From: Escherichia coli | GTDB lineage: Bacteria > Pseudomonadota > Gammaproteobacteria > Enterobacterales > Enterobacteriaceae | Direction: 5' to 3' (one strand) | Assembly (NCBI GenBank): GCA_025544715.1 | Contig: GCA_025544715.1_4109.3 | DNA length: 64,000 bases | Shown: positions 8,028-29,825 of the stretch, one piece after another | Layout of the letters: every line of letters begins with the position of its first letter | Position numbering within the stretch: position 1 is the stretch's first letter | The notes under the pieces: model-generated | The model's database searches: none | Told to the model about the DNA's origin: nothing | Seen by the model: only the letters and a program-made list of their open reading frames with translations | Made by a program: the position numbers and the translations under genes

Positions 8028-8044
8028 TTATAGCACTAAAAATC

Positions 8045-8883: not shown

Positions 8884-8894
8884 ATAATTTTCCT

Positions 8895-8919
8895 TAAAAA
8901 AGACCCCACATAGTGAGGT
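8895..8919 (-). terminator. imperfect hairpin terminator
   Basis: gacc...ggtc stem followed by T6 on minus strand. Confidence 0.3.
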
Positions 8920-8928
8920 CAAATACAT

Positions 8929-9153
8929 TTAATCGTTATCATCATCCAATGCGTCACGGTAAACATAATAAACATGTGCACCTAGCAGAGCAATAAGTAC
9001 AATAAAGACTAACCAGAATGGTACAAAATGCAGTACTAGAGAAAACGCCAGTACTGTAATAACCATTACAACTGAACTGAAAATAAGACTGACTGCTTTT
9101 TCAAATCCAGATAGTAAATTTTTAAAGATTTTTTTCATAAATGAATCAACCAT
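8929..9153 (-). CDS. small two-TM membrane protein with acidic C-terminus (holin-like topology)
   Basis: Two hydrophobic helices then RDALDDDND tail; topology only, not adjacent to the lysis genes. Confidence 0.4.
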   Translation of the reverse strand: MVDSFMKKIFKNLLSGFEKAVSLIFSSVVMVITVLAFSLVLHFVPFWLVFIVLIALLGAHVYYVYRDALDDDND

Positions 9154-9496
9154 TTTTAATCCTCAAGAAAGTATGCTTACATTTTAGTTTATTACCATAG
9201 AATGAAATAGGAACATTAAACATTTCAATCTTATCTTCTTTCAACAAACGTAGAATATCAGGATCGTTTTTTGTTTGAATACAATGAAGACCATTAACCT
9301 GAATTTCTAAACCTTTCTTTAGATATTCATAAATTTTTTGACGACGCATCCCGCCATAACTATCATTATGCACCACATCACGTAGTTCTTTATATTCTTG
9401 CTTCAATGCTCGGTCTACAAGTGTTCCATCTTTCTTCCTGATCTCTGCAATACATTTATATTGATTTGAACCTCTAAGAGCCATGCTGTACCTCAT
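9146..9496 (-). CDS. hypothetical protein (116 aa)
   Basis: ORF. Confidence 0.45.
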   Translation of the reverse strand: MRYSMALRGSNQYKCIAEIRKKDGTLVDRALKQEYKELRDVVHNDSYGGMRRQKIYEYLKKGLEIQVNGLHCIQTKNDPDILRLLKEDKIEMFNVPISFYGNKLKCKHTFLRIKNG

Positions 9497-9953
9497 TAGG
9501 GTATTTTTTCATCAATTCGTGTAAACGCTGAATCTCTTGTTCTTTTTTTCTATCACTCTCGTATTTTCGAGAAAGTTTCTTTTTTGTATTTGCTTCTTCT
9601 AATCTAATATCAGTACAGAATTTGTCATTTTTTAAAAAATTCTTACGCAATGCATTGTAAACAGCATTGAAATCGTTTCCTAATTCTTTAGAAGTGTCAG
9701 TGTAATTATGAAAATATATGTTATTTGTCATATTTACATGTTCAATTACTGCACCATTATGAGTTACGATAAACATTATATCGCCATACTGTTCATGTGG
9801 TTCTGTACGATACAGATATATATGTTTACGTAGATAATCTTTTAATTCATGTTCAATGCCACTTTGTTCATAACTTTGATATACTAAAACCTCACCATCA
9901 GTTGAACTGTTGTCAGATTCATATGGTTCGCGGATAATTATAAGATTATACAT
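9474..9953 (-). CDS. hypothetical protein (159 aa)
   Basis: ORF. Confidence 0.45.
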   Translation of the reverse strand: MYNLIIIREPYESDNSSTDGEVLVYQSYEQSGIEHELKDYLRKHIYLYRTEPHEQYGDIMFIVTHNGAVIEHVNMTNNIYFHNYTDTSKELGNDFNAVYNALRKNFLKNDKFCTDIRLEEANTKKKLSRKYESDRKKEQEIQRLHELMKKYPNEVQHGS

Positions 9954-9961
9954 ATTACTCC

Positions 9962-10243
9962 TTATACCGGAGATACGGTACTCAACATTAGTAAAGCTGT
10001 ATTTTCATCAATTTCATGATATTTGTCACACACAAGAGTTTCCAACAAATCAGGATGATAATAATAATGTTCATAATCAGTATCATTAGGAATATGATGA
10101 TATACAAATACAATATCAAACACATCATCATCATTTTCACTTTTGAAACGCTTTAATTCATCTACACTTTCAACAAAGCCATATTCTTCAAAAGCAGTTG
10201 TACCATCTGGTAGTTTCATCCATGCACTTGCAACAATTTTCAT
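9962..10243 (-). CDS. hypothetical acidic protein (93 aa)
   Basis: ORF. Confidence 0.45.
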   Translation of the reverse strand: MKIVASAWMKLPDGTTAFEEYGFVESVDELKRFKSENDDDVFDIVFVYHHIPNDTDYEHYYYHPDLLETLVCDKYHEIDENTALLMLSTVSPV

Positions 10244-10260
10244 AAATTTGTGAATCCTTA

Positions 10261-10845
10261 TTATTTTGTAATGTTTAGTTTAGAAACGAAGTATTCTTTG
10301 GCTTCTTCATATGTCATTGAAGTATACATAGGATTCCATTTATCGTCAATATCCATAAGTACTTTAACTTCCATTACATCTTCTGGTGTATAGAATTGCC
10401 ATGTATTGTGATCTGGCTCATAGTTAGGGTCCAGTACAAAAACCGTACCATCCTGACCATAAACTTCTCCATCCTCTAATAGCTCACGGAAGAAATCTTC
10501 TCCAGTAGTTGGGTCTTCGTATGCATTATAAAAACGAAAAACAACATTCTCAACATCAGTTTGGGTAGTACCATCGTCTTCATCATATTCCACCAAACGG
10601 TCCTGATGAAATACTAGGTCAATAGCACCAATGCGAGGTTTATTATGTGGAGTTTTGATTTCTTGCTGGGAATTCAAATCAATACGTTCAGTGCTGATGA
10701 ATACTCCACTAGGGGTAATTTCAATACCAGACACATTTTCTGGTGAATAGTAAGCGTCACACATGTCATCAATGTGCATGTGCTCATGATACACTTCCAT
10801 TTCAGGATTCTGCATCAACAGTGCTGCTAAGTCTTTTGCTTTCAA
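10261..10845 (-). CDS. hypothetical protein, paralog of 11215..11847
   Basis: Shares N-terminal MK..LA.LL.Q.P, TPSG.F and C-terminal DPNTW...SYDEA motifs with the other copy. Confidence 0.5.
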   Translation of the reverse strand: MKAKDLAALLMQNPEMEVYHEHMHIDDMCDAYYSPENVSGIEITPSGVFISTERIDLNSQQEIKTPHNKPRIGAIDLVFHQDRLVEYDEDDGTTQTDVENVVFRFYNAYEDPTTGEDFFRELLEDGEVYGQDGTVFVLDPNYEPDHNTWQFYTPEDVMEVKVLMDIDDKWNPMYTSMTYEEAKEYFVSKLNITK

Positions 10846-11234
10846 TCTTCAATCTCCATAGAATTATCATCATCATAATCATCACTGGTGTACTTAGTTT
10901 TTACCTCAATACCATTCTCATGTAGGTATGTGATAAAACCATTACCATAAACGAATTGATTATAATATGTATTTTCTTCTACATGTGCATCATAATCATC
11001 TTCATAATATGTGGGTATTGTAACATCATGACCGACACTTTGCAAGTACTGGAACAATTCTTTCAGTACTACTTCGATATCACCTTCTTCTGTGCCATAA
11101 CAGTAAGCAGGTTCACCATGAGTGAATTTGAAACCTTTACAGGAAACTGTATAAATATCACTCATTTGTATACCACAATCATCACATTCATGTATAGAAC
11201 AATGCTGGTGGAATTTAATCTTTTTGATTTGCAT
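10842..11234 (-). CDS. hypothetical acidic protein (130 aa)
   Basis: ORF. Confidence 0.45.
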   Translation of the reverse strand: MQIKKIKFHQHCSIHECDDCGIQMSDIYTVSCKGFKFTHGEPAYCYGTEEGDIEVVLKELFQYLQSVGHDVTIPTYYEDDYDAHVEENTYYNQFVYGNGFITYLHENGIEVKTKYTSDDYDDDNSMEIED

Positions 11235-11895: not shown

Positions 11896-12336
11896 TTATT
11901 GTAAAACTTTAAGTTTGTAAAGTGTTCCTTCAACAAAACTCATAATATCTTCTAATGTGTTTACACTGCCGTAATCACCCGATTCTTCAAGCATATCATG
12001 AATTGCTCTGCATTGCTCAACATATTCTTCAAGAATTGGTACACAATCTTCAATTGGTGTAAAACGATAACTATTACCAGTCCCAACTTGTAAAGCACCA
12101 CGATTATTCATGATACCTTCAACAAATGCGTCTACATATTCTGGTAATTCTTTATATAGTTCATCTAATTGTAAATGCTTTGTATAAAAATGACATTGTA
12201 AGTGCCAGTTATGTGCAGCAGAACTTAAAAACAAACTATTTTCAATAAAAGTTAATAGTACTTCATCATATGAATTATCTTCTTCAGTACTTCCGATAAA
12301 GTCCATTACGTGTCGTAAATCATTAATATCTTCCAT
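11896..12336 (-). CDS. hypothetical protein (146 aa)
   Basis: ORF. Confidence 0.45.
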   Translation of the reverse strand: MEDINDLRHVMDFIGSTEEDNSYDEVLLTFIENSLFLSSAAHNWHLQCHFYTKHLQLDELYKELPEYVDAFVEGIMNNRGALQVGTGNSYRFTPIEDCVPILEEYVEQCRAIHDMLEESGDYGSVNTLEDIMSFVEGTLYKLKVLQ

Positions 12337-16135: not shown

Positions 16136-18925
16136 TTATAAATCACGGAAACGATTTGGTGTGTTTAAACGGTACATTGAGTATAACCCCAATCCACGCA
16201 TAATCTCACCTGCCCAGAAACCAAAAAACATACCATTATCAGTACCTTCTCTAACTGCTGGACTCCATGATCCATTCATTGGGGAACTTGGATTTACAAT
16301 AACATAATTCTTTTGAAGTTCTAAAACTAAGTTATCAGCGAGTGTCGTTAGACCTTCTATTTTACATCCAGCTAATCCAGCAGCACAAGCCCCAGCTAAC
16401 CACAACCCACACATATGACCTGTAAAGTCCCAATCTGGTCCTTCAACTGTGCCATCTTTATTGAAGATTGTTGGTGAACGACCATCATTATCTTTTTGAA
16501 ATTGAATTAAAAAGTGAATCCAATTCTCACAAAAATCAACAAGATCTGCTGGTGGTTCGATTCCTCTTTCTGCAAGTTCTTGCCATGCTCTTGCAGCCCC
16601 AAAGAATGCACGAGGTTCATACCCGCTCCATGCTTGATCTCCCCAGTGTAGCATTGTGAACGTGTCTGGTTCACCATATTTTAAGTTATCCCAGCGGTTC
16701 CAAACATATGCTTGTGCACATGGACCAACAGTACCGAATTGTTGAGTAAACCATGTTTGAGAATCTTTCATAAAGCTTAACATGTTGCCTAAACGTGTGT
16801 TATCTACTGGTTGGTCTTTAAAACAATATATCACTGGATACTGATAACCAGGATAAGGCAATCCACGCCAACCAGAATACTGATTCGCATACGGGTCAGT
16901 GATGTTAGAAAATGGTATTGTTCCAGGAGTGTAATGCAATGAGTTTAACAAATAATCTTTGATTACACAATCCCCTAACTGTGCAGTATAAGGTGATTCA
17001 CCTGCAATTGTTATTGAGAATGTCATGGTATAGTCATCACCGTCAGCATCCGTATATAATTCTGGAATGTCATTAATACAATACCAATCAATTATTGCAG
17101 CAACACCATCTACTGGGGTTGTATCAGGTAAAATAGTAATATCTTCTAGCTCACTATAAACTGGTGCATCTGGTCTTGGATCAGAACTTGGATGATTTGG
17201 CTGATACCCAGATAAACGTAATGTATCAGAACTTAGTGTGATAGTAGTCCATTCCCCGTGTGTTGCAGGAATCATCCACCACCATCTCCAACCATTATCA
17301 TCTACAATTCGTATATTATAATCATCTTCATATGAACGATATGTGAAAGATTTAACTTCAGACTTATTTGTTGCTAATAACCAAAATCCAATAACAGCAC
17401 CATCATCTTCACCACAAACCAACTGATTAATTGTATCGCGTCTTGTGATTAATATATCAGTACTATATAACATTTCTGATGTAGCTGCACCATAAGGAAC
17501 AACAATTCTACTATCAGCAATTATATAAGGGGAACCATCTGCTTTCTTTTCTCTAACAAATGCACTTAAAGGTGTTAATGAATGTGTGATATTTTGGTCT
17601 TTACTTTCTGGTAAGCCGCAACGATAACGAACAACATCATGGTCATTTTTTGTTTTTGACAATTCCAGTACTGGTTTAAATGATAACGGTTTACCATCAT
17701 CGCACACGCCACCATAGTCAACTAGCAATTTTGAATCAGCATTTACCCTGAACCAAATAGCTTGTTGCTCCATCGTACTCTGTGCACTTTGGTCTTGTCT
17801 GATAGTAATGTATCCTAACGAATTTCTACCAAACTTAGCAATAGCATCACTTGGATAAAAATATTCATAGGAAATACCATCAGTGAATGGTGTGGTTACA
17901 ATTGTACTTTGTCTGAAAAATTTATCTCTGGAGTCGATATCACCATAAGCATAGCATGTGAGTAGTGAACATTTCCAACCCAAATAATGTTTTCTTTCTT
18001 TAGTTATTTTATATAACAAATACGAAGCATCACTGAACCATAATTCTGCATCTGATGCGTTATCAGCAAATTCTAAATTAATTGGAACATGAAGTGGGCG
18101 GTTGTGTTGCATTTCATTTCGTTGAATTATTACACCACCATATTCTACTGGTTGACGATTAGCAAAATTTAATTTATATACACCATTAATTGTTGTATTC
18201 TTTAATTGAACAGTTCCTTTTTCAGATTCGTCAAAACCTTCTGCTAAAATATTACCATCCCAGTCGATTTTTCTACCCATGAAATCAATAACCCAGTCAA
18301 CATCATATTGTTCACCTGGTGTATCCCAATCAACACTACCATCTGGTAATAAAGCTTTTACTGACGCATTTATTTGGTTCCATGCTAAAGCACCTTTGAA
18401 TGCAAATGTCACTTTATCCAAGAACTGACCATAATATGGTGCACCATGTGGTATTTTGCATTGACCATTAGTAAATGTAAATTCTACTCCCTTGAAACCA
18501 CCATGTGTGGGCCAGCCATCATCAGCTAAAGGCCAGTTAGCCAATATAGGTTCTTTTGCATTAACTATCCAGTTACATTGTAGCGGTGTAGGTGGATCTG
18601 GTAATTCACGTCCAGCATAAAAGTACTGATGATATGCGTCCCAATACCACTTTGCCTTATCTAAAAACATTGGATCATTTGTAGCCAGATATGCATAAAT
18701 GTATCCTAAAATTAATAGACTTTGACCTTCTGTTGTCCCGTCACCGTTTGGTTGACCTTCCATTGCAGAATAGTTAATAAAATGGCGGTTGTTCGCCAAA
18801 ACACCCTGATTGTTCACCACATAATGCTGTACTGTTGGGTCTATTGTATCACCAGTATTTCTTTCAATAAATTTGTGATGCCCATAAAGAAGTTGTACAA
18901 TATTATCAATATTATTGTTTAACAT
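16136..18925 (-). CDS. large virion-associated protein (929 aa), possible tailspike/depolymerase
   Basis: Aromatic-rich (W/Y) sequence typical of carbohydrate-active folds; follows tail-fibre-associated ORF; no specific catalytic motif identified. Confidence 0.5.
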   Translation of the reverse strand: MLNNNIDNIVQLLYGHHKFIERNTGDTIDPTVQHYVVNNQGVLANNRHFINYSAMEGQPNGDGTTEGQSLLILGYIYAYLATNDPMFLDKAKWYWDAYHQYFYAGRELPDPPTPLQCNWIVNAKEPILANWPLADDGWPTHGGFKGVEFTFTNGQCKIPHGAPYYGQFLDKVTFAFKGALAWNQINASVKALLPDGSVDWDTPGEQYDVDWVIDFMGRKIDWDGNILAEGFDESEKGTVQLKNTTINGVYKLNFANRQPVEYGGVIIQRNEMQHNRPLHVPINLEFADNASDAELWFSDASYLLYKITKERKHYLGWKCSLLTCYAYGDIDSRDKFFRQSTIVTTPFTDGISYEYFYPSDAIAKFGRNSLGYITIRQDQSAQSTMEQQAIWFRVNADSKLLVDYGGVCDDGKPLSFKPVLELSKTKNDHDVVRYRCGLPESKDQNITHSLTPLSAFVREKKADGSPYIIADSRIVVPYGAATSEMLYSTDILITRRDTINQLVCGEDDGAVIGFWLLATNKSEVKSFTYRSYEDDYNIRIVDDNGWRWWWMIPATHGEWTTITLSSDTLRLSGYQPNHPSSDPRPDAPVYSELEDITILPDTTPVDGVAAIIDWYCINDIPELYTDADGDDYTMTFSITIAGESPYTAQLGDCVIKDYLLNSLHYTPGTIPFSNITDPYANQYSGWRGLPYPGYQYPVIYCFKDQPVDNTRLGNMLSFMKDSQTWFTQQFGTVGPCAQAYVWNRWDNLKYGEPDTFTMLHWGDQAWSGYEPRAFFGAARAWQELAERGIEPPADLVDFCENWIHFLIQFQKDNDGRSPTIFNKDGTVEGPDWDFTGHMCGLWLAGACAAGLAGCKIEGLTTLADNLVLELQKNYVIVNPSSPMNGSWSPAVREGTDNGMFFGFWAGEIMRGLGLYSMYRLNTPNRFRDL

Positions 18926-18926: not shown

Positions 18927-19463
18927 TCATACTCCTGCTCTAATTAATGCACCGTACCATGTAACTCCTTTATCATATGTTTCTAATGAAATAATATCTT
19001 TTTCACCAATTTCATAAGAAAGAACAACTGGTCTATTATATGACCATTTAACATTTGAACCCCAATTAACGAGGTTAGACCCTGTTTGCTGAGTTAATAG
19101 GATAGTAATTGAATAAACTTCAGTAGGAGCAGCACCAATAGCAATAGTGGTATTTCTGTCAGATAAATTAATATTAAAAACTGTATTACCTGATAGGGGA
19201 TTAATTAAAATATTATTAGAACTCAATACATTATATAACTTGTTACTAGCACTATCATACAATGTTACCCATTCTGTTTCATGATTCTCATTAGTAGCTT
19301 TAGCTTTTATTTTTACATTATTTTCGGAAGAAGTCATTCCAGTCCAGCCAGAAATAATAAAAGAACTGTTTTTATTTGTTCCAAATGATGCAATTACCGA
19401 ATCACTAAGAGAACTATCTTCACCGTCAATAGATCCGAGTACTGACAATGTTAAAACCATCAT
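18927..19463 (-). CDS. tail-fibre-associated protein (178 aa)
   Basis: S/T/N-rich ORF immediately upstream of 929-aa gene; frame closed by TAA just upstream of ATG ATG. Confidence 0.45.
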   Translation of the reverse strand: MMVLTLSVLGSIDGEDSSLSDSVIASFGTNKNSSFIISGWTGMTSSENNVKIKAKATNENHETEWVTLYDSASNKLYNVLSSNNILINPLSGNTVFNINLSDRNTTIAIGAAPTEVYSITILLTQQTGSNLVNWGSNVKWSYNRPVVLSYEIGEKDIISLETYDKGVTWYGALIRAGV

Positions 19464-19569
19464 TTTTAATGTCTACACCAGTTGCACCTGAAAAATTATT
19501 TTGAAATTTAATAACTCCGGTAGTGTGGATATCTGTGAAAATTTGTTGTGCCATACTTAATCCTTGCGT

Positions 19570-19631: not shown

Positions 19632-20864
19632 TTACTTATACCATTGCATTTCTCTGATATCAATGATAATTTTTGATGCTAATTTAATGTTTGGTTTTTT
19701 GGGAAGTACTGATTTCTTATATAGAACATCACGAATGTATTGTACTTTATCATCGAAATATTCTAATACTTCTTCATACTTCCACTTACCATTACGAATA
19801 TCCATCAACATTTGTGCATCAGGTCGTTTAACTTGAATAATTCCACTCTGTAATGCTTCTTCTGCACTATTCAAAAGTCTAATTGTGTGCATAGCATGTT
19901 TACAATCGTATCCGTGTTGTGATTCTAAAATAGCACGTTTGGCATTACGATTTTCTTTCCATTTATGATAACTTTTCCTATTCTCACTATTCTCCTGATA
20001 TTCTTTTTCGTTAAATTTTACAATTAGTTCTGGTTTGGTTTTCAACTCTTCAGTACTACGTTCTTTAGAAAAATAACGCAATGAACCATCATGGTTAATA
20101 GTGCTTTCATTAGGATTCTTAACAATCGCAAAAATGTTTTCTCCGTAATGAATTAGTTCATAACCATTATTAAAATTCAATAAATTGAAATCACGATCAA
20201 GAATTTTTTCAGTAGTGTAGTTATGTACTAATCTTACGAAATGATATTGCTTTAATGGATTTTTCGAAACTAACTGCAATGATGTATCACGCATATATTT
20301 TTCAAAATCAATCTTTTTAGCATTAAATGGATGTAAGTTGGATGTATCTAAACGTTCAACAAGATACTGTGGGAATGAATCATACATCCACGCAAGAACC
20401 TCATCGACAGGGTGTTCTTCTAAAATCTCATTTAATCGTTTTTCAGCAATACGCTCTTTATCCATCCAACCGTGATGATTTGTCATACGCTTAATCTGAT
20501 TATATGCATATCCAGTGTATGAAAATGCAATCTTGGAACTAAGAAGTTTTTGGTTAAATGAACGAAGATAGTCATAAATTTCAGTACTTTCAACAATGTG
20601 TTCAGGTTCAACCCAAAGTGATTCAAGAATATTAGGGTTAGCTTCAGTGTATAATTTTAAATACTGATTCAACTCATAGAATTTAGTATCTTCTTCGCTT
20701 TTATCAGCTACCTCTTTGACCTTATAGAAGGGTGTAAGAATAAATTCTTTATTAGCAAGAAAAATACCACGATAATCAGTATCACTTTCAGGTGTACTGG
20801 TTCCGTAGGCTTGTGACCCAGCCAAGTGTTTCACTATTGTTTGTTCAATATATTGGTTATTCAT
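19632..20864 (-). CDS. Pol-beta-superfamily nucleotidyltransferase domain protein (410 aa)
   Basis: N-terminal hLAGSQAYGTSTPESDTDYRGIF matches the GS-x9-13-DxD nucleotidyltransferase signature. Confidence 0.5.
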   Translation of the reverse strand: MNNQYIEQTIVKHLAGSQAYGTSTPESDTDYRGIFLANKEFILTPFYKVKEVADKSEEDTKFYELNQYLKLYTEANPNILESLWVEPEHIVESTEIYDYLRSFNQKLLSSKIAFSYTGYAYNQIKRMTNHHGWMDKERIAEKRLNEILEEHPVDEVLAWMYDSFPQYLVERLDTSNLHPFNAKKIDFEKYMRDTSLQLVSKNPLKQYHFVRLVHNYTTEKILDRDFNLLNFNNGYELIHYGENIFAIVKNPNESTINHDGSLRYFSKERSTEELKTKPELIVKFNEKEYQENSENRKSYHKWKENRNAKRAILESQHGYDCKHAMHTIRLLNSAEEALQSGIIQVKRPDAQMLMDIRNGKWKYEEVLEYFDDKVQYIRDVLYKKSVLPKKPNIKLASKIIIDIREMQWYK

Positions 20865-21262
20865 AGATAAATTGTTAACTCCTTTAAGAAACCATTATAA
20901 TAACGATTAAAGTCATGTTCTAATGTTTTATAATCATCAAAACTAAAACCTAAATTGATAATTGTATCTTCTTGAAAGAAAGTTTCTTCATTCATACATT
21001 CAATAGGTTCGTAATTAATTCCACCTTTGAAAACTTTTGTAAAAAACATTCCATCATTATTAATTTCAACATACATAAAATTATTTTCTGGGTCACGAGG
21101 ACAGACGATATTCAGTGAACTATTTCCACTCGTATTGTACTCATAAGAAATTATATCAAAAGAATCAATACCATAACACTTAGATTTTTCTTTATCGCCA
21201 AATACTTTTCTATCTGTACTCATATTGCGTATAGTGCTATAGATATCATCAACTGTAGTCAT
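20861..21262 (-). CDS. hypothetical protein (133 aa)
   Basis: ORF. Confidence 0.45.
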   Translation of the reverse strand: MTTVDDIYSTIRNMSTDRKVFGDKEKSKCYGIDSFDIISYEYNTSGNSSLNIVCPRDPENNFMYVEINNDGMFFTKVFKGGINYEPIECMNEETFFQEDTIINLGFSFDDYKTLEHDFNRYYNGFLKELTIYL

Positions 21263-21264
21263 AG

Positions 21265-21774
21265 TTAACCACCATACTTTGACTTGTATGTTTCAAGTGA
21301 TAAAGATATACGATTTTGCTTTTTAATTCTTTCATCAATATCCTTTGAATTCTTCACACTTCGGTATACGTCAGCTAATAAATTATAATCTTCTTTATTT
21401 GAGCTATGCTGTGTCCAACCTATGTCTGTTTTAATACGAACACTTGCTTTATTTGACCAGTAAAAGAAACTGAAACCATTTGACCCATCAAAAATATCAA
21501 AAGTATCTACCCAATCACCATAAGGAAAACTCGTCGGGACTGACTCGTGGTCGATTGTGATATCCGATAAATTGTTTGAACAGTACTTCGCAAAGTGATA
21601 AACAATTGGATCACATTTAGATAATTCATATTTGTATTCAATGATAGTTTTTCTATTAGCATCATTGATAGCATATTCTTTCATCAATGGGCTTTTTTTG
21701 ATGATAAGAGTCCACAGAAACGATTCTAATCCGGTTTCATCAACTTTTTGTTTCTTTTTGAAAAATGAAATCAT
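21265..21774 (-). CDS. hypothetical protein, triplicated family member 1
   Basis: Shares NDANRKTIIEYKYELSK-type motif with 21771..22292 and 22299..22865. Confidence 0.5.
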   Translation of the reverse strand: MISFFKKKQKVDETGLESFLWTLIIKKSPLMKEYAINDANRKTIIEYKYELSKCDPIVYHFAKYCSNNLSDITIDHESVPTSFPYGDWVDTFDIFDGSNGFSFFYWSNKASVRIKTDIGWTQHSSNKEDYNLLADVYRSVKNSKDIDERIKKQNRISLSLETYKSKYGG

Positions 21775-22292
21775 TTATATAAACCCTTAATTTTCTGTCT
21801 ATTATGTATATCATTTTGCTGGATTTTCAATTTAGTAAGGTTGTTTCTTACACCTTCAACTCCACGCATTATTTGTAACATAATTAGTGATTCGTCATAT
21901 GTTAGTACATTGCTATTATTATCGATATATACTTTCACTCCACTTTCAAGATAATCATTTTCTTTGGAGTTAAAGTTTCTAATAGCAAACTTAACTTTAT
22001 TTGTTGTATCACTGAATACATATCGTTCCGCACCGTAGAATGTTTTTCCACGAAATAAACCGCCGTCTTCCCACTTCCAACGGCTAGATTCATAATCATT
22101 AACGTAATCAAGGATTAAAGAAAGTAAAGGATGTTTACTTAATTTATATTTTGCTTCTAACAGGATACGTCTATCATTATCTGTGGTGATAATATCCTTT
22201 AGTGAGTAGCTTTTAGATATAATTTTAAAGATAATTTCATGCCAAATTAATGTACTGTTTTGTTTTCCAACTGATCCAAAAAACATATCCAT
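21771..22292 (-). CDS. hypothetical protein, triplicated family member 2
   Basis: TDNDRRILLEAKYKLSK motif. Confidence 0.5.
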   Translation of the reverse strand: MDMFFGSVGKQNSTLIWHEIIFKIISKSYSLKDIITTDNDRRILLEAKYKLSKHPLLSLILDYVNDYESSRWKWEDGGLFRGKTFYGAERYVFSDTTNKVKFAIRNFNSKENDYLESGVKVYIDNNSNVLTYDESLIMLQIMRGVEGVRNNLTKLKIQQNDIHNRQKIKGLYK

Positions 22293-22298
22293 TCCTCA

Positions 22299-22865
22299 TT
22301 AGTATAAATCAGTAATGTCTTTGTATGCATTAATCTGTTTTTGTTGTAATGAAAGTTCATTGAGTTTAGTTACCATCTTATCTACACCAACACGTGTATA
22401 GAAAATAATTAATGAATCTAAATTGCCTAGAGTAATTCTTGAACTGTAAGTTGAAAGTTTTCTTGCATAAACATAAATTTCTTCTTCACTTGGTAAACGT
22501 TTCTCAATCAGCAAGTTTTCCACACCATTCGGCTCATAATCAATCTCGAACTCTACGCCTATCACTGTGTCTTGAATGCGATCCGTATATGAACCACCGT
22601 AAAAATACTCTCTTGGTTTGGATCTCCAACGAGAACTAAATGGGTCTGTTGCGTATTCTTTTACAAATTTGTAAAAGGACATTTTACTGAGCATATACTT
22701 CATCTCAATTAGTGCTTTGCGGTCATCATCAGTTTTAAACTCTGCTTTGAGCGATGGACTTTTACACAGTAACTTAACTAAATTGTTGTACATCTTTAAT
22801 GTACGTTGTTCTTTCATTTCTTTGATTTTGTGACGTTTTGGTGGTGGTAATAAAGATTTGACCAT
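22299..22865 (-). CDS. hypothetical protein, triplicated family member 3
   Basis: TDDDRKALIEMKYMLSK motif. Confidence 0.5.
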   Translation of the reverse strand: MVKSLLPPPKRHKIKEMKEQRTLKMYNNLVKLLCKSPSLKAEFKTDDDRKALIEMKYMLSKMSFYKFVKEYATDPFSSRWRSKPREYFYGGSYTDRIQDTVIGVEFEIDYEPNGVENLLIEKRLPSEEEIYVYARKLSTYSSRITLGNLDSLIIFYTRVGVDKMVTKLNELSLQQKQINAYKDITDLY

Positions 22866-22902
22866 AATTTCCTCCTATTTTTATTCAATTATACACATAA
22901 AA

Positions 22903-22930
22903 GAAAAGCCCGTCAATAGACGAGCTTTAA
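22903..22930 (-). terminator. imperfect hairpin terminator after tail-fibre operon
   Basis: aaagcccgtc/gacgagcttt stem (one mismatch) then T-rich run on minus strand. Confidence 0.35.
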
Positions 22931-22932: not shown

Positions 22933-25662
22933 TTATTTCCAACGTGTACCTGGACCTGATGGTACACCAGTACTGGCAGGTATCGCTGAACCACGTTTCG
23001 TTGTACTTGGGCGATATGTCAAAAAACGAGTCACTTTTTCAGTATCAATCGAAGTAATTCCTGAAGTTCCAGTAACTATCTTACCAATGTAAGTGCTAGT
23101 TAAAGATTCATCAATAGTTTCAGTACTAATAACATATGACGCTTTCTTAGTATTCCTGTTCATTTGTATATACAAATAGAACGTAGTATTAGCTGGATTA
23201 CTTTTTACCGTACTTAAATCTACACTTTGTATAGGTAGTCTGTCGAAAATTCCACCTAAAAACACCGGAACTTCACGTGTAAAGTACACTGAGAATCCTT
23301 GTGCAACGTCTTGTGATACTACCACAATCTTTTCTTTAACGCTACCATTTCCGCTAATTAAACCATCCATTTCAGCAGATGTTGTACCAAAAACGCTGAA
23401 TACAGATTTGGTTTGATAGTCAGAATCTTGAAAATTGTAATATCCAAAACCAACACCAGGAATAACACCATGTTGATATGCTGCACCGAGTTGGATGTAA
23501 CTAGATGACAAAAAACGATTTGATGTTATGACACCATCTACCGTTTTAGCTATCATCATCTTAAATTGTGCATTACCTGGTTGTGAAAATTGATGAACTG
23601 CATCAACACCAATGTAACCGAATCCTGAATATTTAGCAACTGTTAGACCAGTACAACGTTTCATATATGCTTCAGTAATAATTCCTGTAACAGAACTAAG
23701 TGTCTCATATCTAGTACTTACCAATGAAGCTGAAGTTATGTTAGTTCCAGATAATACAACATCAACTTCGGCATAAATTGCATAACCTTGGTTATTGTTA
23801 AGATTATATGCTGAAACTACTGCAATGGATTTAGAAAAAGTATTATCAGGTACATAATATAATACAATTTGTCCAGATAGTGTACCAACAATGCCAGAGT
23901 TTCCTAGATTAGCAAAAATATCTTGTTTTAATGATTCTAATACCGTTGGTTCTATTGTATATGTTTCATCAAATTCTAAAGTATCTGGGTTTAATAATCC
24001 ACCACTTGTTTTATATACACCTTCAATGAATGATGTTCCATAGCATCTAACACTACCATCGGTATCAACAAGAGAAATCATAGCAGTGTATGTAAAATCA
24101 TCACCTATTTGTTTACGATTAGATTGTGGTGCAAAACCATTTAATGTAGTATTATTTTGAACTGAGTTATATTGATATGTTGGTTGTGAGCCTATTTCAG
24201 AAAAAACAGTATTATTATAATTATATGTTACATCATCATACGTACCAGAACATGCTAATAATATTTTTCTATTATCGATGAAACGTACACCTAATAGGTT
24301 TGCACCAACAGCACTACCAAAAACTGGTAAAACGTTTGCATTTATAACGTTACTTGCGGATCTAGTACTAGCAACCCATGAATCAAACGGTGTGCCACTA
24401 ACCTTATATCGTTGTAGACCATAAAATTCAGTTGAACTCCATCTAAATTTAGATGCAAATACTAAACCATCTTTGGTTTGACATAAACCACCTGCGTTTC
24501 CTAATACACCAGCAGCAGTTGTCCCAGTGAAGTTGACCATATCGATTTCAAATGGGTTAGAAACTTGAAATCCATTATTATATGAAACTGTAGCAGGAGC
24601 ACGAGCAGAACCATCTAGTGACATAGATTTTGAGTTTATATTATAAACAAAACTGATACCAGTACCATACACTGTTGAAATATATAAAGGTGTAACCATT
24701 CTATGTGTTGGGTATAAAGTTACACGTATTTTGGATAAATCAGTACTAACGTTTGCTTGTATATTAAAGTCTGTATAATCCGAAAATTCTACACGTGAGA
24801 CTGGTGATGTAACTTCGAATAATGAATCCGAGCTAGTACCAACACTATATAATCTATCAAACACTCTTATGTTATTAGATGCAGAATAACTTGTATTTCT
24901 AACAGTTTGCCCTGATAATCCAGTAACTTTTGTTAATGATGCCATTGAGCTTGCTTTCACATCACTTAGCTCTACTGTATAAATTGAAAGTGCTAATCCT
25001 AAATTAGAAACACTTTTATCTTTACACCAAATATATACTTTTGTTCCAACAATATGAGTATATATAGGCATATCATTACCAAAAGAAGTACTTGGTACTT
25101 TAGCATGAATATGTGATACTTCGTTGAATGTACCATTAGTTATAGTAAAAATATAATTATCTTCTGTACTTAAACATCCAAGCATTTCATAACCATTAGA
25201 GCCAATAAAATACTTAATATTCTCTGTACTACTCATAATTGAAGGTTTATACATTGAATTGGTTGAAATAACACTTTCTTGTGAAATCATGGTTATATTT
25301 CTGATTTCTCGTATAAATGAATAATAAAAACCTTTAGTACTGCCATTCGTCCCACTACGTAGAACAACAGCAGTACCATCATCTTCAATAATAGTCGGTT
25401 GAACAACTTGATCACTTGACATAGGTGTAGCACCTTCATACGACCCACTTACGTTTAATGGTAAGTAATCCATTTCTCCTACACGTGATATAGGCAACAT
25501 ATCTAAAATACTTTGAACTTCAGAACGCTTGTATATTGGATATTGAACAATTCCAGTATTTGCATTCGGTGAGGTTCCATTGAAAGTACGCATAGCGTAC
25601 CTTCCTCCAATTGCTAAGTTCCCAAGGATCTCGGCACTTCCTATAATTCGTTTTGATGACAT
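22933..25662 (-). CDS. tail fibre protein (909 aa)
   Basis: S/T/N/G-rich beta-type sequence; N-terminal MPIS..G..YLP..VSG and DGT.VLLRSGTNGS shared with 26278..28974; C-terminal domain shared with both neighbours; start re-assigned to MSSKR with AAGGAA RBS (track 25752). Confidence 0.6.
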   Translation of the reverse strand: MSSKRIIGSAEILGNLAIGGRYAMRTFNGTSPNANTGIVQYPIYKRSEVQSILDMLPISRVGEMDYLPLNVSGSYEGATPMSSDQVVQPTIIEDDGTAVVLRSGTNGSTKGFYYSFIREIRNITMISQESVISTNSMYKPSIMSSTENIKYFIGSNGYEMLGCLSTEDNYIFTITNGTFNEVSHIHAKVPSTSFGNDMPIYTHIVGTKVYIWCKDKSVSNLGLALSIYTVELSDVKASSMASLTKVTGLSGQTVRNTSYSASNNIRVFDRLYSVGTSSDSLFEVTSPVSRVEFSDYTDFNIQANVSTDLSKIRVTLYPTHRMVTPLYISTVYGTGISFVYNINSKSMSLDGSARAPATVSYNNGFQVSNPFEIDMVNFTGTTAAGVLGNAGGLCQTKDGLVFASKFRWSSTEFYGLQRYKVSGTPFDSWVASTRSASNVINANVLPVFGSAVGANLLGVRFIDNRKILLACSGTYDDVTYNYNNTVFSEIGSQPTYQYNSVQNNTTLNGFAPQSNRKQIGDDFTYTAMISLVDTDGSVRCYGTSFIEGVYKTSGGLLNPDTLEFDETYTIEPTVLESLKQDIFANLGNSGIVGTLSGQIVLYYVPDNTFSKSIAVVSAYNLNNNQGYAIYAEVDVVLSGTNITSASLVSTRYETLSSVTGIITEAYMKRCTGLTVAKYSGFGYIGVDAVHQFSQPGNAQFKMMIAKTVDGVITSNRFLSSSYIQLGAAYQHGVIPGVGFGYYNFQDSDYQTKSVFSVFGTTSAEMDGLISGNGSVKEKIVVVSQDVAQGFSVYFTREVPVFLGGIFDRLPIQSVDLSTVKSNPANTTFYLYIQMNRNTKKASYVISTETIDESLTSTYIGKIVTGTSGITSIDTEKVTRFLTYRPSTTKRGSAIPASTGVPSGPGTRWK

Positions 25663-25678
25663 CTTTCTTTTCCTTAAT

Positions 25679-26266
25679 TTACCAACCAATTGTACCAGTT
25701 TCTGATGGTTTCCCAGTACTGACTGGGAATGAAGAACCTTTTTGTGTAACACTAGGTCTATATGTACTAAATCTGGATACTTTATTAATGTTTATATTTG
25801 TAATGCCACTTGTACCAACGGTAAGAGTTCCAATAAACATTATAATTTCAGATTCTTGTATTTGTGTTGGTGATACTTTATATATTGGTTCACCGAGAAC
25901 TAACGTTGCATATACATATTGTGTTTGTGTCCCAGATGAAACTGTTGAAGCAAAAATAGAAACTGCTGGAAATTTATAAAGATAACCACCAATAAATGAT
26001 GGTATTTCTCTATTAAATGTAAGACTATAACCAGACGAAGTAATATTTAGACTTGCATCATCATACAATTCACCGTATTGTGTGAGTGGTAATCCATTTA
26101 CAATAAAATTAACTTCATCTTTAGTAATAGAGGGGAATGTACATTCCCCATTTGAATTTGTTGGGTAATAAGTCATATTATTACCTAATACACCAAGTCC
26201 AGTACTTTTACCCTGTACTGTAACTTGTTGCATTGCCTTAAGGTCTGCTCTTATTTTATATGCCAT
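25679..26266 (-). CDS. tail fibre distal-domain paralog (195 aa)
   Basis: Standalone copy of the C-terminal roughly 130-aa domain of both long fibre genes, ending ...TYRPS...KGSSFPVSTGKPSETGTIGW. Confidence 0.55.
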   Translation of the reverse strand: MAYKIRADLKAMQQVTVQGKSTGLGVLGNNMTYYPTNSNGECTFPSITKDEVNFIVNGLPLTQYGELYDDASLNITSSGYSLTFNREIPSFIGGYLYKFPAVSIFASTVSSGTQTQYVYATLVLGEPIYKVSPTQIQESEIIMFIGTLTVGTSGITNININKVSRFSTYRPSVTQKGSSFPVSTGKPSETGTIGW

Positions 26267-26277
26267 TATGTAATCCT

Positions 26278-28974
26278 TTACCAGTTTATGGTTCCTGTTT
26301 GTGATGGTAGACCGTAGCTAACTGGGAACGATGAACCTGCTGATTCAAGTGAAGCACCAAATATATCTAAACGTGAACGTTTTTGTATATTAATTGTTTC
26401 GATTTGAATTGCATTAGTTTGAATTGTACCTATCCAAAAAATATTATATGCAGTTGTTCCTGTTTCAGAAATAACATCAGTAGTTATGTAATAGTTTGCC
26501 AATCCTTGGTCCAATTTAACATATACATAAAATGTTGTATTTGCTGGATTAGACTTAATAGTTCTCAAATCAATATTTGAAACTGGTAGTGAAAATGACT
26601 TACCTGAAAGAATAACTGGTGTTTCTTCTGTAAAATATACAATAAACCCTTGAGCAACGTCCTGTGATACTACGTTAATTGGGCTACCTTGTGCAGTCCA
26701 GTTATTATAGTCTGTAATCGTTGTCCCATATTTTTTGAATGTCATTTTATTTGAGTAATCCATTGGTTCAAAAATTCCAAAACCAATACCAGGTAACGCT
26801 GCTGGTTGACTTCCCTGTTCATAACTGGCATGAGAACCAGTAATTATAAAACTTGTAAATTGTGCAGTTGATTTAGTTACATATGCTCTAAATTGATGAG
26901 TTGCAGTATTACCTATTGTTGGATGTGATAATGGGTCAGAACCACCAATGAAGTAGAATGAACCTCCATCATATATTGTCAAACCAACAGAAGAAGATGC
27001 AATCGAACCATTTCCAGTTGGTGTAAAGTTATCACCATACGTATTCTCAAGTACTAAACGCTTGAATGTAATAGATGTAATATTACCAACTCTAGTATTG
27101 ACGTTAACTTCAGCAATTCTAATATAGTTTCTATAATCATTAGTAATTGTACTCAACATAACAAAAGCTGGAATGTCTGTTTGTTGTGGAACAAATAGTG
27201 TCATATCACGGTATGCTTGTGGTGATAAATTCCAATCACTTAGAACTTTAGCATATTCAGTATTTCTAAAATTGTCCAGTACTGATTGTGTAACACTTAT
27301 AATGCCTGTACCATTTAAGTTTTTATCATAGGATAATGATTGTGAATAACGTTGCCCAACCATAAAAATACCACCATTGGTTGTAACAGTTGACCCAGAA
27401 ATACTACTAATGAAAATTCTATTATTTGCATTATCATCAACGTTAGCACGTTCAACTGTAGGTTCATAACCTTGTATTGTTCCTAAAGATAATGATTTAA
27501 ATGTAAAATTAGGAGTACTTTTATGAACTGCATATGATGGTCTAAATCCACCACTACCTGATGCACGTGAATATTGTTTAGTACTGTTATCTGGTAGTAA
27601 TTCTACACCATTAATAAATGAACCAACCGCTGAACCAAAAGACGGGCGAACTATACCACCTTTGAAGTCAGTAGAAAGTACAGCACGCACATTCAGCATA
27701 CTATAAACTATTTGAATAGGAAACTTAGCTTTTTGCATAAGCAATGGTTCTGCTAAGTTTGGACATGCAGTACAAAATGCTTCACCTGAATTTAAATAAA
27801 AATATGAACTGTAAATATTCCTTGCATTTGCATGGTTATACAATGGATCGTTATTTAAAACGTTTCCAGTAGGAACTAATGCTGAACCGGTATCAGTAAT
27901 AACTAATGGTGCTTGGTATGAACCAATATCATTACCTGCATCTAATGTACATTGTTTAGTACTCATGTTGAATACAAAACTGTAACTATGTTGTGGTCGT
28001 GTATTATAAGTTGCCATTGTGAACCAAGCATCACCATTCATTCTAAAGCGGAAGTTCTGTGTACCTGGCTGCTGTGCAACACATAAATCGATTGATGTCA
28101 TGTAAATCCCAATACCACGTAGATTTTTTGGAACATACACATAAGGTTTATCAGCGATATTTGTTGATGTTACCTGATTAGTTATAACCATATTATTTTG
28201 TGCAGAATAAGTTGTGTTATAAAATGTTTTAGTAGTCCATCCAGTAACACGAGTTGCGGTATAAGTACCATTACTGATATTATAAACCACTTTAACTACA
28301 ACTAATTGTAATTGGTTATTTGCATTAAGTACGTTAAAAACATATATAGAACCATCTTCTGCCATCATAGCATATTCAATACCACCTTCAGGTGATATAT
28401 CTGCTTGGTTAACGAAAAAACCAGTATGCAATTTATCATCTAATGTACCATTAGTAATTGATATGAACAAACCATTAGTACTGTTAGAAGTGTCTACATA
28501 TCTACCGAGTAAAATATTTGGATCAGTATTGTATAAGCCAATTGCGACTCGATTAGAACCGAAAAAACCAGGCTTGTATTGACGACTGGTGTTAATTGTA
28601 CGGCTCATGTCATCAACTGATAATGCGTTAGCCAAATATGAATAAAATAATCCCTCAACACTACCGTTTGTTCCACTACGTAAAAGTACTAGTGTACCAT
28701 CGTTTTCTAATAAAATTTTATTTCTACGTTGGGTCTGGTTTTCGGATGCACCATTGAAATCTCCAGAAACACCAGCAGGTAGATAGTTTTGTGAACCATA
28801 ATGGGAGATTGGCATCATGCTTACTATATCTAGTACTTCATCTCTGGAATACGTGTCTAATTCCATGTTACCATTTGAATCAAACACTTGTTCATTTATT
28901 CCTTGAATTGTTCTTTTACCATTAACTGTCACATTATGTGTGACATCTAAGCCACCATATATTTTCTTTGACAT
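26278..28974 (-). CDS. tail fibre protein (898 aa)
   Basis: Paralog of 22933..25662 at both termini; preceded by TATAAATA late promoter. Confidence 0.6.
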   Translation of the reverse strand: MSKKIYGGLDVTHNVTVNGKRTIQGINEQVFDSNGNMELDTYSRDEVLDIVSMMPISHYGSQNYLPAGVSGDFNGASENQTQRRNKILLENDGTLVLLRSGTNGSVEGLFYSYLANALSVDDMSRTINTSRQYKPGFFGSNRVAIGLYNTDPNILLGRYVDTSNSTNGLFISITNGTLDDKLHTGFFVNQADISPEGGIEYAMMAEDGSIYVFNVLNANNQLQLVVVKVVYNISNGTYTATRVTGWTTKTFYNTTYSAQNNMVITNQVTSTNIADKPYVYVPKNLRGIGIYMTSIDLCVAQQPGTQNFRFRMNGDAWFTMATYNTRPQHSYSFVFNMSTKQCTLDAGNDIGSYQAPLVITDTGSALVPTGNVLNNDPLYNHANARNIYSSYFYLNSGEAFCTACPNLAEPLLMQKAKFPIQIVYSMLNVRAVLSTDFKGGIVRPSFGSAVGSFINGVELLPDNSTKQYSRASGSGGFRPSYAVHKSTPNFTFKSLSLGTIQGYEPTVERANVDDNANNRIFISSISGSTVTTNGGIFMVGQRYSQSLSYDKNLNGTGIISVTQSVLDNFRNTEYAKVLSDWNLSPQAYRDMTLFVPQQTDIPAFVMLSTITNDYRNYIRIAEVNVNTRVGNITSITFKRLVLENTYGDNFTPTGNGSIASSSVGLTIYDGGSFYFIGGSDPLSHPTIGNTATHQFRAYVTKSTAQFTSFIITGSHASYEQGSQPAALPGIGFGIFEPMDYSNKMTFKKYGTTITDYNNWTAQGSPINVVSQDVAQGFIVYFTEETPVILSGKSFSLPVSNIDLRTIKSNPANTTFYVYVKLDQGLANYYITTDVISETGTTAYNIFWIGTIQTNAIQIETINIQKRSRLDIFGASLESAGSSFPVSYGLPSQTGTINW

Positions 28975-29008
28975 TGTATATCCCTTATAAATTAGATATT
29001 AGTTAATG

Positions 29009-29016
29009 TATTTATA
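29009..29016 (-). promoter_or_regulatory. T4-type late promoter TATAAATA
   Basis: Exact TATAAATA on minus strand 35 nt upstream of the tail-fibre ATG at 28974, just after the nrdG terminator. Confidence 0.5.
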
Positions 29017-29050: not shown

Positions 29051-29521
29051 TTAAAAATCTTTATTTTTATATAGTATTCTTTGATTATTTGAACCACGGA
29101 AAGGTAATTTTAAATTCTTTTCGGACTCGATAAACTTACCATCAACTAATACATCTAAGTACTGAAGTATATCTTTAGAATGATTTTTCATAATCTCATC
29201 TAAAGTATACCCACTCCAGCACCAAATAGTTTTACTAGGATAAGTTTCTTTAACTACTTTGCATAGATTTAAAACTTCATCTATATTCTTTTTCATTAAT
29301 GGATCGCCGCCTAGAAGTGATAAACCACTAACATATGGTTTTTTTAGTTCCTGTAGTATAATCTCAACTGTTTCAGTACTGAACTCTTGACCACTTCTGT
29401 AGTCCCATGCTTCTTCATTGAAGCAACCATCACATCCGTGCGAACACCCACTAACAAATAAAGAGCAGCGAACACCCTCTCCATTTACTAAATCATCCTT
29501 GATTATCGTCTGGTAATTCAT
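29051..29521 (-). CDS. nrdG: anaerobic ribonucleotide reductase activating protein
   Basis: Radical-SAM-like CSHGCDGC cluster; 156 aa; close to T4 NrdG in length and N-terminus. Confidence 0.85.
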   Translation of the reverse strand: MNYQTIIKDDLVNGEGVRCSLFVSGCSHGCDGCFNEEAWDYRSGQEFSTETVEIILQELKKPYVSGLSLLGGDPLMKKNIDEVLNLCKVVKETYPSKTIWCWSGYTLDEIMKNHSKDILQYLDVLVDGKFIESEKNLKLPFRGSNNQRILYKNKDF

Positions 29522-29825
29522 CTAATATTGCACTCACTATTTCGACAAGAACATCGCCGTGACATGATTTGGGTTTACAGAAACAACCAAGGCGTTTCCC
29601 TGCGAGTTCAAGTAATTCATCAATCTTAACTTCTCCACAAGAAATACGTTCAATAATGTATTCTCTGAATTTTTCAATTGATTCTTCTCTTGTACTAACA
29701 ATGAATTCGGCTTTGGTTTGTTTATCTTTAATATGGGTAAATGGGTTTCCCCATTTAGACCCACGCCCAATATACACATCATACGGTTCTTTGTATTTGT
29801 TAACCACAATTGGCTTTAAATCCAT
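29493..29825 (-). CDS. conserved hypothetical protein (110 aa)
   Basis: YIGRGSKWGNPF ... CFCKPKSCHGDVL motif pair; lies between nrdD and nrdG. Confidence 0.45.
   Translation of the reverse strand: MDLKPIVVNKYKEPYDVYIGRGSKWGNPFTHIKDKQTKAEFIVSTREESIEKFREYIIERISCGEVKIDELLELAGKRLGCFCKPKSCHGDVLVEIVSAILDELPDDNQG

Follow-up and report, generated by a model that had tools for sequence, protein, structure and literature searches.

The window analysed here, a 64,000-nucleotide (nt) stretch of the Escherichia coli assembly GCA_025544715.1 (contig GCA_025544715.1_4109.3), is by its sequence DNA of an Asteriusvirus, a jumbo coliphage of the RaK2-like jumbo myoviruses (~350 kb), and carries a compact block of five genes in which three tandem paralogs and a gene for a small acidic protein precede the gene of a 410-amino-acid (aa) nucleotidyltransferase (NTase). 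The enzyme almost certainly belongs to the RlaP/phage-NTase family, the paralogs are a genuine lineage-restricted family without detectable function, and the five genes together probably form a non-structural counter-defence operon. The 3.6 kb around the block share 98.7% DNA identity with Escherichia phages vB_EcoM_G17 (G17) and Sharanji and 98.3% with PBECO4; the GC content of the window is ~33%, and its minus strand carries nearly all genes. In the order of transcription, which is followed below, the block encodes proteins of 188, 173, 169, 133 and 410 aa. The start of the 169-aa gene overlaps the stop of the 173-aa gene by 4 nt, the stop of the 133-aa gene overlaps the start of the NTase gene by 4 nt (20861-20864), and the remaining gaps within the block are 2-6 nt, an arrangement that resembles a translationally coupled operon. 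The first-pass annotation of this DNA had located the four open reading frames (ORFs) of 410, 169, 173 and 188 aa correctly, all of them on the minus strand, and had overlooked the 133-aa gene between the paralogs and the NTase gene. It had also described the paralogs as lying downstream of the NTase gene; the minus-strand orientation in fact places them upstream (5') of it.

The 410-aa protein matches Pfam PF10127 (RlaP) over residues 13-131 with 59.2 bits (gathering cut-off 23; E value 6.3e-16) and the PHROGs profile phrog_388, annotated as 'nucleotidyltransferase', with an E value of 3e-76. It is 100% identical to the 410-aa PBECO4 protein YP_009150380.1, which is included in Table S1 of Ho et al. 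(bioRxiv 10.1101/2022.06.09.495361) along with the proteins of 121Q (410 aa), RaK2 and K64-1, so that the enzyme has already been catalogued. Both motifs by which Ho et al. define their 'phage NTase' family are matched exactly: site 1, GS-x-AY[GAN]T-x4-SDxD, by GSQAYGTSTPESDTD at residues 16-30, and site 2, NP-x-h2[DE], by NPNILE at residues 76-81, which lies 46 residues past D30 (~60 after SDxD in the definition). The residue after GS is Q, and the Tyr found at this place in MNT is therefore missing. A word-indexed search found 845 homologues of the NTase, and in an alignment of 30 sequences reaching down to 39% identity, residues G16, S17, D28, D30, D59, E64, N76, P77, N78 and E81 are invariant. 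In the predicted model D59 sits on the strand formed by residues 60-64 and is, on that ground, likely the third catalytic carboxylate. The N terminus, which reads AGSQAYGTSTPESDTDYRGIF, thus bears out the Pol-beta-superfamily signature recognised by the first-pass annotation, with an intact active site whose catalytic acidic residues are retained in all the aligned sequences.

Among the homologues, the 353-aa NTase of phage Av-05 aligns with the window protein from end to end at 35% identity (E value 1e-83) and is itself a Pfam RlaP protein. T4 NrdC.11, which has been assigned to the RlaP family (PMC12776372) and itself matches Pfam RlaP, is also homologous (E value 2e-13), BLASTP giving 29% identity for the N-terminal 154 residues and 24% for a stretch of the C-terminal part. 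Relative to the ~350-aa forms of rV5-like and other phages, the NTases of the RaK2-like clade carry an insertion of ~65 residues (~134-200). The AlphaFold2 (AF2) model of the window NTase has a mean predicted local distance difference test score (pLDDT) of 91 and a predicted template modelling score (pTM) of 0.81, and shows an NTase core at the N terminus that is followed by a long helix, a beta-domain of small size and, at the C terminus, a helical domain (helices 286-409). Sequence and profile searches of the PDB matched no chain, and no solved RlaP structure was recovered by sequence, profile or Foldseek. The closest solved structures in Foldseek were kanamycin NTase ANT(4') (1kny, E value 0.022), the MNT antitoxin (7ae9, 0.037) and Hailong HalB (9dbj, 0.046), all of them marginal matches with TM scores of 0.15-0.35.

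The families proposed for the enzyme in the first-pass annotation, namely CD-NTase, MNT and AbiEii, were not recovered by any profile, and structural similarity to them is marginal at most. A PADLOC scan of the NTase returned nothing at E ≤ 0.1, and hence no CD-NTase profile match, and NCBIfam returned nothing; the best CD-NTase structure, LpCdnE, was reached in Foldseek only at an E value of 2.3. No Pfam match to NTP_transf_2/MNT or AbiEii was obtained at E ≤ 0.1, the likeness to the MNT structure is the marginal one given above, and the protein is 410 aa long. Pfam and PADLOC scans of the neighbouring genes likewise revealed no Cap effector domain and no HEPN or AbiEi partner. The earlier interpretation is therefore partly supported, in that the NTase fold and the paralogy of the small genes hold and the proposed families do not.

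Alignment of the three small proteins showed that they are true paralogs, by both BLASTP and profile evidence. The 173- and 188-aa proteins match each other over their full length (E value 9e-16, 31% identity); the 169-aa protein matches either of them over the N-terminal ~40 residues only (E value 9e-5). The profile phrog_7868 matches the 173-aa protein over residues 10-173 (E value 2e-11), and a profile hidden Markov model (HMM) of the family matches all three window paralogs with E values of 1e-48 to 1e-53, indicating that the 169-aa protein is related to the other two over its full length. The profiles phrog_18641, phrog_7868 and phrog_22376 (the last matched by the 133-aa protein) are matched full-length by the window proteins, with E values of 1e-56 to 1e-84, and carry no functional annotation in PHROGs. 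In a set of 27 diverse family members, all 27 match phrog_7868 and 25 match phrog_18641. The T(D/N)xDR(K/R)xLIExKYxLSK core described by the first-pass annotation is real in this set: D38, R41, K48 and S52, located in the N-terminal helical region, are each at least 90% conserved, and a Tyr at or near the C terminus (Y172) is invariant. The middle region is variable with many insertions and deletions, the C-terminal helix is long, and the window paralogs are basic, with isoelectric points (pI) of 8.4-9.3. The AF2 model of the 173-aa paralog is weak (pLDDT 64) and shows three helices at the N terminus, a sheet of four strands and a C-terminal helix of 40 residues.

The family is small. Searched exhaustively with HMMER, 1.84 billion representative proteins yielded only 33 clusters, all of 50-210 aa, and the word-indexed search found 7 matches. 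A Pfam scan of the family members gave no recurring family, and the searches of families, folds and motifs found nothing that links the paralogs to nucleotide chemistry. Several candidate relationships were rejected. A match of the 169-aa protein to phrog_10822 'HNH endonuclease' (E value 0.0084) was seen in only one of the 27 members, and comparison with the neighbouring HNH protein of K64-1 by hhalign gave a probability of 0.1%; no relation was found between the paralog profile and T4 NrdC.8, NrdC.10 or MobD.1; a PADLOC match of the paralogs to DUF2290 (E value 0.004) was single and weak and was disregarded; and the 133-aa protein is not a fourth paralog (hhalign probability 0.2%). The paralogs belong to no recognisable enzyme family and, going by their phAPEC6 homologues, are not virion parts. 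As far as we found, the relation between phrog_18641 and phrog_7868, the tandem arrangement and the constant site upstream of the NTase gene, all worked out here, have no published description.

The position of the paralogs relative to the NTase gene was compared across 14 loci with enough sequence to judge, comprising the window, G17, phAPEC6, JNE01, Klebsiella phages Muenster and K64-1, Salmonella phage SE_PL, Yersinia phage fHe-Yen9-04 and six metagenomic contigs. In all 14, two to four tandem paralogs on the same strand lie 0-5 genes upstream of an NTase gene of the 413-aa type, and this linkage persists for the most divergent members detectable (E values of ~1e-4 to 1e-5). The genes between the paralogs and the NTase gene vary and include those of the 133-aa protein (kept upstream of the NTase gene in 10 loci), a ~150-aa protein, DUF4326, Thg1 and a DNA methylase. 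The sampled paralog contexts are all from RaK2-like jumbo phages. Phage records with the NTase number 690 and those with the paralogs 45, and a scan with the family HMM found no paralog beside the homologous NTase of T4, PVP-SE1, a Vibrio jumbo phage and another phage of 330 kb. The NTase therefore commonly occurs without the paralogs, which are a lineage-specific addition rather than an obligatory partner.

Several of the relatives show variants of this region. The richest version of the cassette is that of fHe-Yen9-04 (locus L011 in our numbering, 2437-8242), in which the stretch upstream of the NTase gene holds four paralogs interleaved with genes for Thg1 (tRNA-His guanylyltransferase, E value 3e-32), DUF4326 and an N6/N4 DNA methylase. 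The DUF4326 gene shifts within the region while the paralog-NTase neighbourhood stays: in the window it lies at 29493-29825 on the minus strand, between nrdG and nrdD, and in L007, L009, L014 and L015 among or next to the paralogs. In a 330-kb metagenomic jumbo phage (L017, 5455-7308), the order nrdD-nrdG-...-RlaP is kept, and a 181-aa protein with a weak ART-PolyVal (ADP-ribosyltransferase) match is encoded directly upstream of the NTase gene in place of the paralogs.

Moreover, the paralogs diverge between close relatives to an extent that the surrounding genes do not. Compared with JNE01, a phage of the same genus, the window paralogs are 28-37% identical, whereas the NTase is 75%, the 133-aa protein 62% and the fibres 62-87% identical; among the flanking genes compared, only one 139-aa ORF is as divergent (35%). 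With the Ecwhy_1 group, identity reaches 90-91% for the 173- and 169-aa paralogs and 83% for the NTase. This pattern suggests that the whole array may have been replaced by a divergent allele (cassette exchange) rather than having evolved fast and steadily. Allele replacement of this kind is common for host-interaction and anti-defence genes.

The block also appears to form a transcription unit of its own. A composite element directly upstream of the first paralog combines a terminator hairpin of 10 pairs with a promoter scoring 11 of 12, the -35 box of which lies in the hairpin loop. The element is also found upstream of the first paralog in seven other loci (L002, L006, L007, L009, L011, L012 and L014), that is, in eight loci with the window and across genera; in those seven, TTGACA in the loop, the T-run and the -10 box are kept, and the hairpin stems differ in sequence yet still pair. 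This predicted element would end the upstream late operon of fibre-like genes and start the paralog-NTase operon. A related arrangement was observed at 16134-16081, where a perfect TTGACA-17-TATAAT promoter is directly followed by a terminator hairpin. The T4 late-promoter consensus TATAAATA occurs only once on the minus strand of the 64-kb window, at 29016-29009, between the terminator after nrdG and the 898-aa gene, ahead of the upstream fibre-like operon; TATAAATT, with one mismatch to that consensus, precedes the gene of the 42-aa virion protein at ~19520, which opens the next, late structural unit. In the virion proteome of phAPEC6, Gp314, Gp315 and Gp323 (homologues of the 929-, 42- and 898-aa proteins) are included, while Gp316 (NTase) and Gp318-321 (the 133-aa protein and the three paralogs) are absent; the absence from virions refers to these phAPEC6 homologues. 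The separate sigma-70-like promoter and this absence from virions indicate that the block is a non-structural cassette, probably read early, with a late structural operon on either side. A search of the literature found nothing on the timing of transcription in Asteriusvirus. In the phAPEC6 record (L005, MK817115), the 178-aa tail-fibre gene (3527-4026) and the 909-aa fibre-like gene (7467-10878) are unannotated, so that the published virion proteome could not score the 178- and 909-aa proteins.

The features of the block and of the rest of the window are collected in the table. The first-pass annotation had placed the block between two tail-fibre clusters, which is broadly right: the downstream side does hold tail genes, and the upstream side holds three fibre-like genes, with no PHROGs function for the 195- and 939-aa products and no Pfam match for the 898-aa product. 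The 898- and 909-aa proteins are 27% identical over their full length, and both share with the 195-aa protein a C-terminal tail of the form ...G(S/T)(S/A)(F/I)P(V/A)S(Y/T)G.PS..GT..W. An alternative GTG start would extend the 909-aa gene to 939 aa, overlapping the 195-aa gene. Further downstream, a homologue of T4 rI.-1 (by the annotation of G17) lies at 11896-12336 on the minus strand, and the order nrdD/nrdG ... NTase (the NrdC.11 homologue) ... rI.-1 echoes the T4 map in outline.

Table. Features of the five-gene block, its flanks and the remainder of the window (positions in the 64,000-nt stretch)
Feature	Position	Strand	Remarks
Upstream late operon	22933-29016	-	three fibre-like genes, paralogs of one another
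898-aa fibre-like gene	26278-28974	-	phAPEC6 homologue Gp323 in virions; no Pfam match
195-aa fibre-like gene	25679-26266	-	'mini' version sharing the N- and C-terminal parts; no PHROGs function
909-aa fibre-like gene	22933-25662	-	ATG start as annotated in G17
Composite terminator/promoter	22888-22928	-	hairpin 22928-22905, -35 TTGACG in loop, T-run, -10 TATAAT, spacer 17 nt
Paralog 1	22299-22865	-	188 aa, pI 9.2, phrog_18641 type, family HMM E value 1.4e-48, ribosome-binding site AGGAGG upstream
Paralog 2	21771-22292	-	173 aa, pI 9.3, phrog_18641 type, family HMM E value 2.6e-53
Paralog 3	21265-21774	-	169 aa, pI 8.4, phrog_7868 type, family HMM E value 3.8e-49
Acidic protein	20861-21262	-	133 aa, pI 4.4, phrog_22376
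Nucleotidyltransferase	19632-20864	-	410 aa, Pfam RlaP (PF10127), phrog_388
42-aa protein	19426-19554	-	homologue of phAPEC6 virion protein Gp315; opens the next, late structural unit
178-aa tail-fibre protein	18927-19463	-	phrog_32568 (tail)
929-aa tail fibre	16136-18925	-	phrog_2871 (tail); homologue Gp314 in phAPEC6 virions
CCA-adding/poly(A)-polymerase-type NTase	2747-3859	-	
PIN-PhoH fusion	36921-38360	-	
ATP-dependent DNA ligase	49656-51074	-	
T4-type Pnkp	57374-58306	-	
T4-type RNA ligase 1 (Rnl1)	59403-60545	-	

Two activities have been reported for the NTase family. PF10127 was named RlaP for its linkage to RNA ligases, and two Pseudomonas RlaPs add one or two nucleoside monophosphates (NMPs) to RNA at its 3'-OH end, DNA and protein being no substrates, with a preference for Mn2+ and for the 5' half of a cleaved-tRNA mimic; they also restore aminoacylation of a tRNA short of one nucleotide (Carruthers, Fatma & Huang, bioRxiv 2025, PMC12776372). 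The crystal structure of PfRlaP comprises an N-terminal NTase domain and a C-terminal helical domain with the terminal helix packing back (PMC12776372). In jumbo phages, RlaP is the most prevalent RNA-end NTase, and its distribution mirrors that of RNA ligases (Iyer et al., PMC7824862). Ho et al., on the other hand, found for the NTases of BCP1 and Av-05 product masses corresponding to 3'3'-cGAMP (the 3'3' form of cyclic GMP-AMP) and c-di-AMP (cyclic di-AMP), and both enzymes inhibited TIR-STING in vitro and in E. coli. The Av-05 NTase was reported to make 3'3'-cGAMP, c-di-AMP and cUA and to rescue E. coli from SfTIR-STING, and a catalytic-site mutant of the BCP1 enzyme lost both product formation and rescue. 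The same authors noted that genes such as those of DUF4326 and a DNA methylase cluster near phage NTases, and DUF4326 is predicted to act on ADP-ribose phosphates (PMC9503650). Chemically, RNA 3'-end extension and cyclic-dinucleotide (CDN) synthesis are both the transfer of an NMP to a ribose 3'-OH, and an RNA-end-extending enzyme could plausibly link nucleoside triphosphates (NTPs) together if supplied with nothing else.

Our working hypothesis is that the NTase transfers NMP from NTP onto a ribose 3'-OH by means of its GS...SDxD...D active site and with a divalent metal. The likeliest physiological acceptor would be an RNA 3' end, from the host or the phage, and chiefly that of tRNA which host anticodon nucleases have trimmed; the NTase would rebuild the RNA end, and the phage Pnkp and Rnl1 would then reseal it. 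The paralogs, a fast-diverging family of small basic proteins probably co-transcribed with the NTase, would most likely act in the same setting of host conflict, as inhibitors of host factors or as accessory factors. RNA-end repair as the activity of the NTase comes close to an even call, and the hypothesis as a whole, with RNA as the acceptor, is held tentatively. Repair is supported by the window itself, which encodes Pnkp, Rnl1 and a CCA-adding-type enzyme; by fHe-Yen9-04, where Thg1, an enzyme of tRNA 5'-end repair, lies inside the paralog array and in the same gene string as the NTase; and by PVP-SE1 and Av-05, where the NTase gene lies a few genes from that of a tRNA nucleotidyltransferase. 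Several observations pull the other way. The closest experimentally tested homologue is the Av-05 NTase and not a bacterial RlaP, and its reported CDN products would favour an NTP as the acceptor. Rnl1 and Pnkp are encoded ~37 kb from the NTase gene, outside the operon, and the frequent neighbour DUF4326 would fit a conflict over NAD and TIR proteins at least as well as RNA repair. The linkage loci all come from one phage lineage, so that the association of paralogs and NTase may reflect inherited synteny rather than functional coupling, and the NTase is present without the paralogs in other phages (690 against 45 records). Lastly, the early transcription by host sigma-70 RNA polymerase, which is probable, is read from the promoter sequence.

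The observations on Av-05 lead to a different reading, in which the NTase is a 'signal jammer' against TIR-STING or the cyclic-oligonucleotide-based anti-phage signalling system (CBASS): it would join two NTPs into CDNs (3'3'-cGAMP, c-di-AMP) that compete with the activating ligand of host effectors sensing cyclic nucleotides, and the small genes, paralogs included, would be further anti-defence genes. The exact match to both motifs of Ho et al., the identical PBECO4 protein in their Table S1, the end-to-end alignment with the tested Av-05 enzyme, for which CDN masses and SfTIR-STING rescue were reported, the DUF4326 and DNA methylase genes among the neighbours in relatives, and the apparent exchange of the paralogs as a cassette, typical of anti-defence genes, all speak for it. 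The cyclic-nucleotide hint of the first-pass annotation is accordingly not absurd as chemistry, CDN synthesis having been reported for this homologue, although the CD-NTase family it named is wrong. However, the products in that study were identified from masses obtained by matrix-assisted laser desorption/ionization (MALDI), in jumbo phages the family and RNA ligases share their distribution, Thg1 in the gene string of a relative points to tRNA ends, and the bacterial members act on RNA, neither DNA nor protein being a substrate (CDN synthesis was outside the scope of that study). The host also counts against it. Common enterobacterial CBASS effectors, CapV among them, are switched on and not blocked by 3'3'-cGAMP, so that its production would be risky in E. 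coli, and TIR-STING is known mainly from Bacteroidota. CDN jamming as the activity of the NTase is therefore doubtful, and the same holds for the jamming reading in full.

The paralogs can also be read apart from the NTase. As assembly chaperones (Tfa/gp38-like) of the fibre-like proteins encoded upstream, with the proximity of the NTase incidental, they would have the right size, since tail-fibre assembly proteins typically measure 160-200 aa; a cluster of large genes for fibres or receptor-binding proteins precedes them in every case, three mutually paralogous fibre-like genes stand before the three small ones in the window, and absence from the virion is compatible with such a role. Yet the conserved terminator and their own sigma-70-type promoter separate them from the fibre genes with their T4-late-type promoter, the copy numbers are uncoupled (three fibre-like genes and two paralogs in both L006 and L009), and no tail-fibre-assembly family was matched in Pfam or PHROGs. 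In addition, the upstream fibres of Muenster are unrelated to those of the window (no BLAST match) and its paralogs are 27-33% identical, whereas the fibre-like genes of JNE01 are 62-75% identical and its paralogs are no closer (about 28-37%), showing that the paralogs do not co-vary with the fibres; a chaperone role is thus very unlikely. Alternatively, the paralogs may be early 'host-takeover' or accessory genes, encoding small DNA- or RNA-binding regulators placed by the synteny of the lineage and without functional link to the NTase or the fibres. The confinement of the family to one phage lineage (33 clusters, RaK2-like contexts), the occurrence of the same NTase without paralogs in T4-like, rV5-like and other jumbo phages, the basic character of the proteins, for which an N-terminal module of three helices and a long helix at the C terminus are predicted, and the lack of any family, fold or motif tie to nucleotide chemistry are consistent with this. 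On the other hand, the paralogs stay next to the NTase even where reshuffling, loss or replacement has changed the genes in between, and even in the most divergent members detectable, and the tight spacing with 4-nt overlaps suggests co-expression with it; we regard independent takeover genes as possible but rather improbable. A further-reaching reading, in which the paralogs, the 133-aa protein and the NTase would be one counter-defence module specific to RaK2-like jumbo phages, is speculative and on balance unlikely: the paralogs would be a new protein family and would either direct the NTase to particular damaged RNAs or nucleotide acceptors or directly neutralise host effectors such as anticodon nucleases and cyclic-nucleotide-activated proteins, with alleles swapped between phages as hosts change.

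Compared with known systems, the window NTase is closest to the phage NTases of Ho et al., with which it shares the motifs, the full-length alignment with the Av-05 enzyme and the Pfam RlaP match. It differs from the 353-aa Av-05 protein by the additional ~65-residue insertion after the NTase core, and from the setting of that work by its E. coli host, which is not a typical carrier of TIR-STING. With the bacterial RlaPs (PfRlaP and PaRlaP) and T4 NrdC.11 it has in common PF10127, the catalytic carboxylates and, as far as its AF2 model predicts, probably the domain plan, with the NTase domain at the N terminus and a helical domain at the C terminus. It differs in that the Pfam model aligns to no more than residues 13-131, the C-terminal two thirds being particular to the phage clade; nor is the gene in an operon with a ligase, Rnl1 and Pnkp being encoded elsewhere in the genome. 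ANT(4') likewise combines the minimal Pol-beta NTase fold with a C-terminal helical domain, and MNT and HalB share the minimal fold, but the window NTase is far larger than these proteins, has an extra beta-domain and the insertion, and is found without a HEPN partner or an aminoglycoside context. The CD-NTases of CBASS belong to the same Pol-beta superfamily and would make the same products, cyclic dinucleotides, if Ho et al. are right; their motif set differs, and the window block has no Cap effector genes.

In summary, the NTase of this Asteriusvirus block adds no new kind of enzyme, and the paralogs that precede it are an uncharacterised family. The locus provides a test bed for two activities claimed for one family, the rebuilding of RNA 3' ends and the cyclic-dinucleotide 'jamming' of STING, and the compact operon touches both themes, as its relatives add Thg1 (tRNA 5'-end repair) and DUF4326 (predicted processing of ADP-ribose phosphates). 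The paralogs are a clean case of a lineage-restricted array, apparently exchanged as a cassette and with no homology detected outside, and gene sets of this type have repeatedly yielded new anti-defence proteins. If the paralogs do modulate the NTase or block a host nuclease, they would represent a new protein family with a defined partner, and study of the module could show which of the activities claimed for PF10127 operates during infection.

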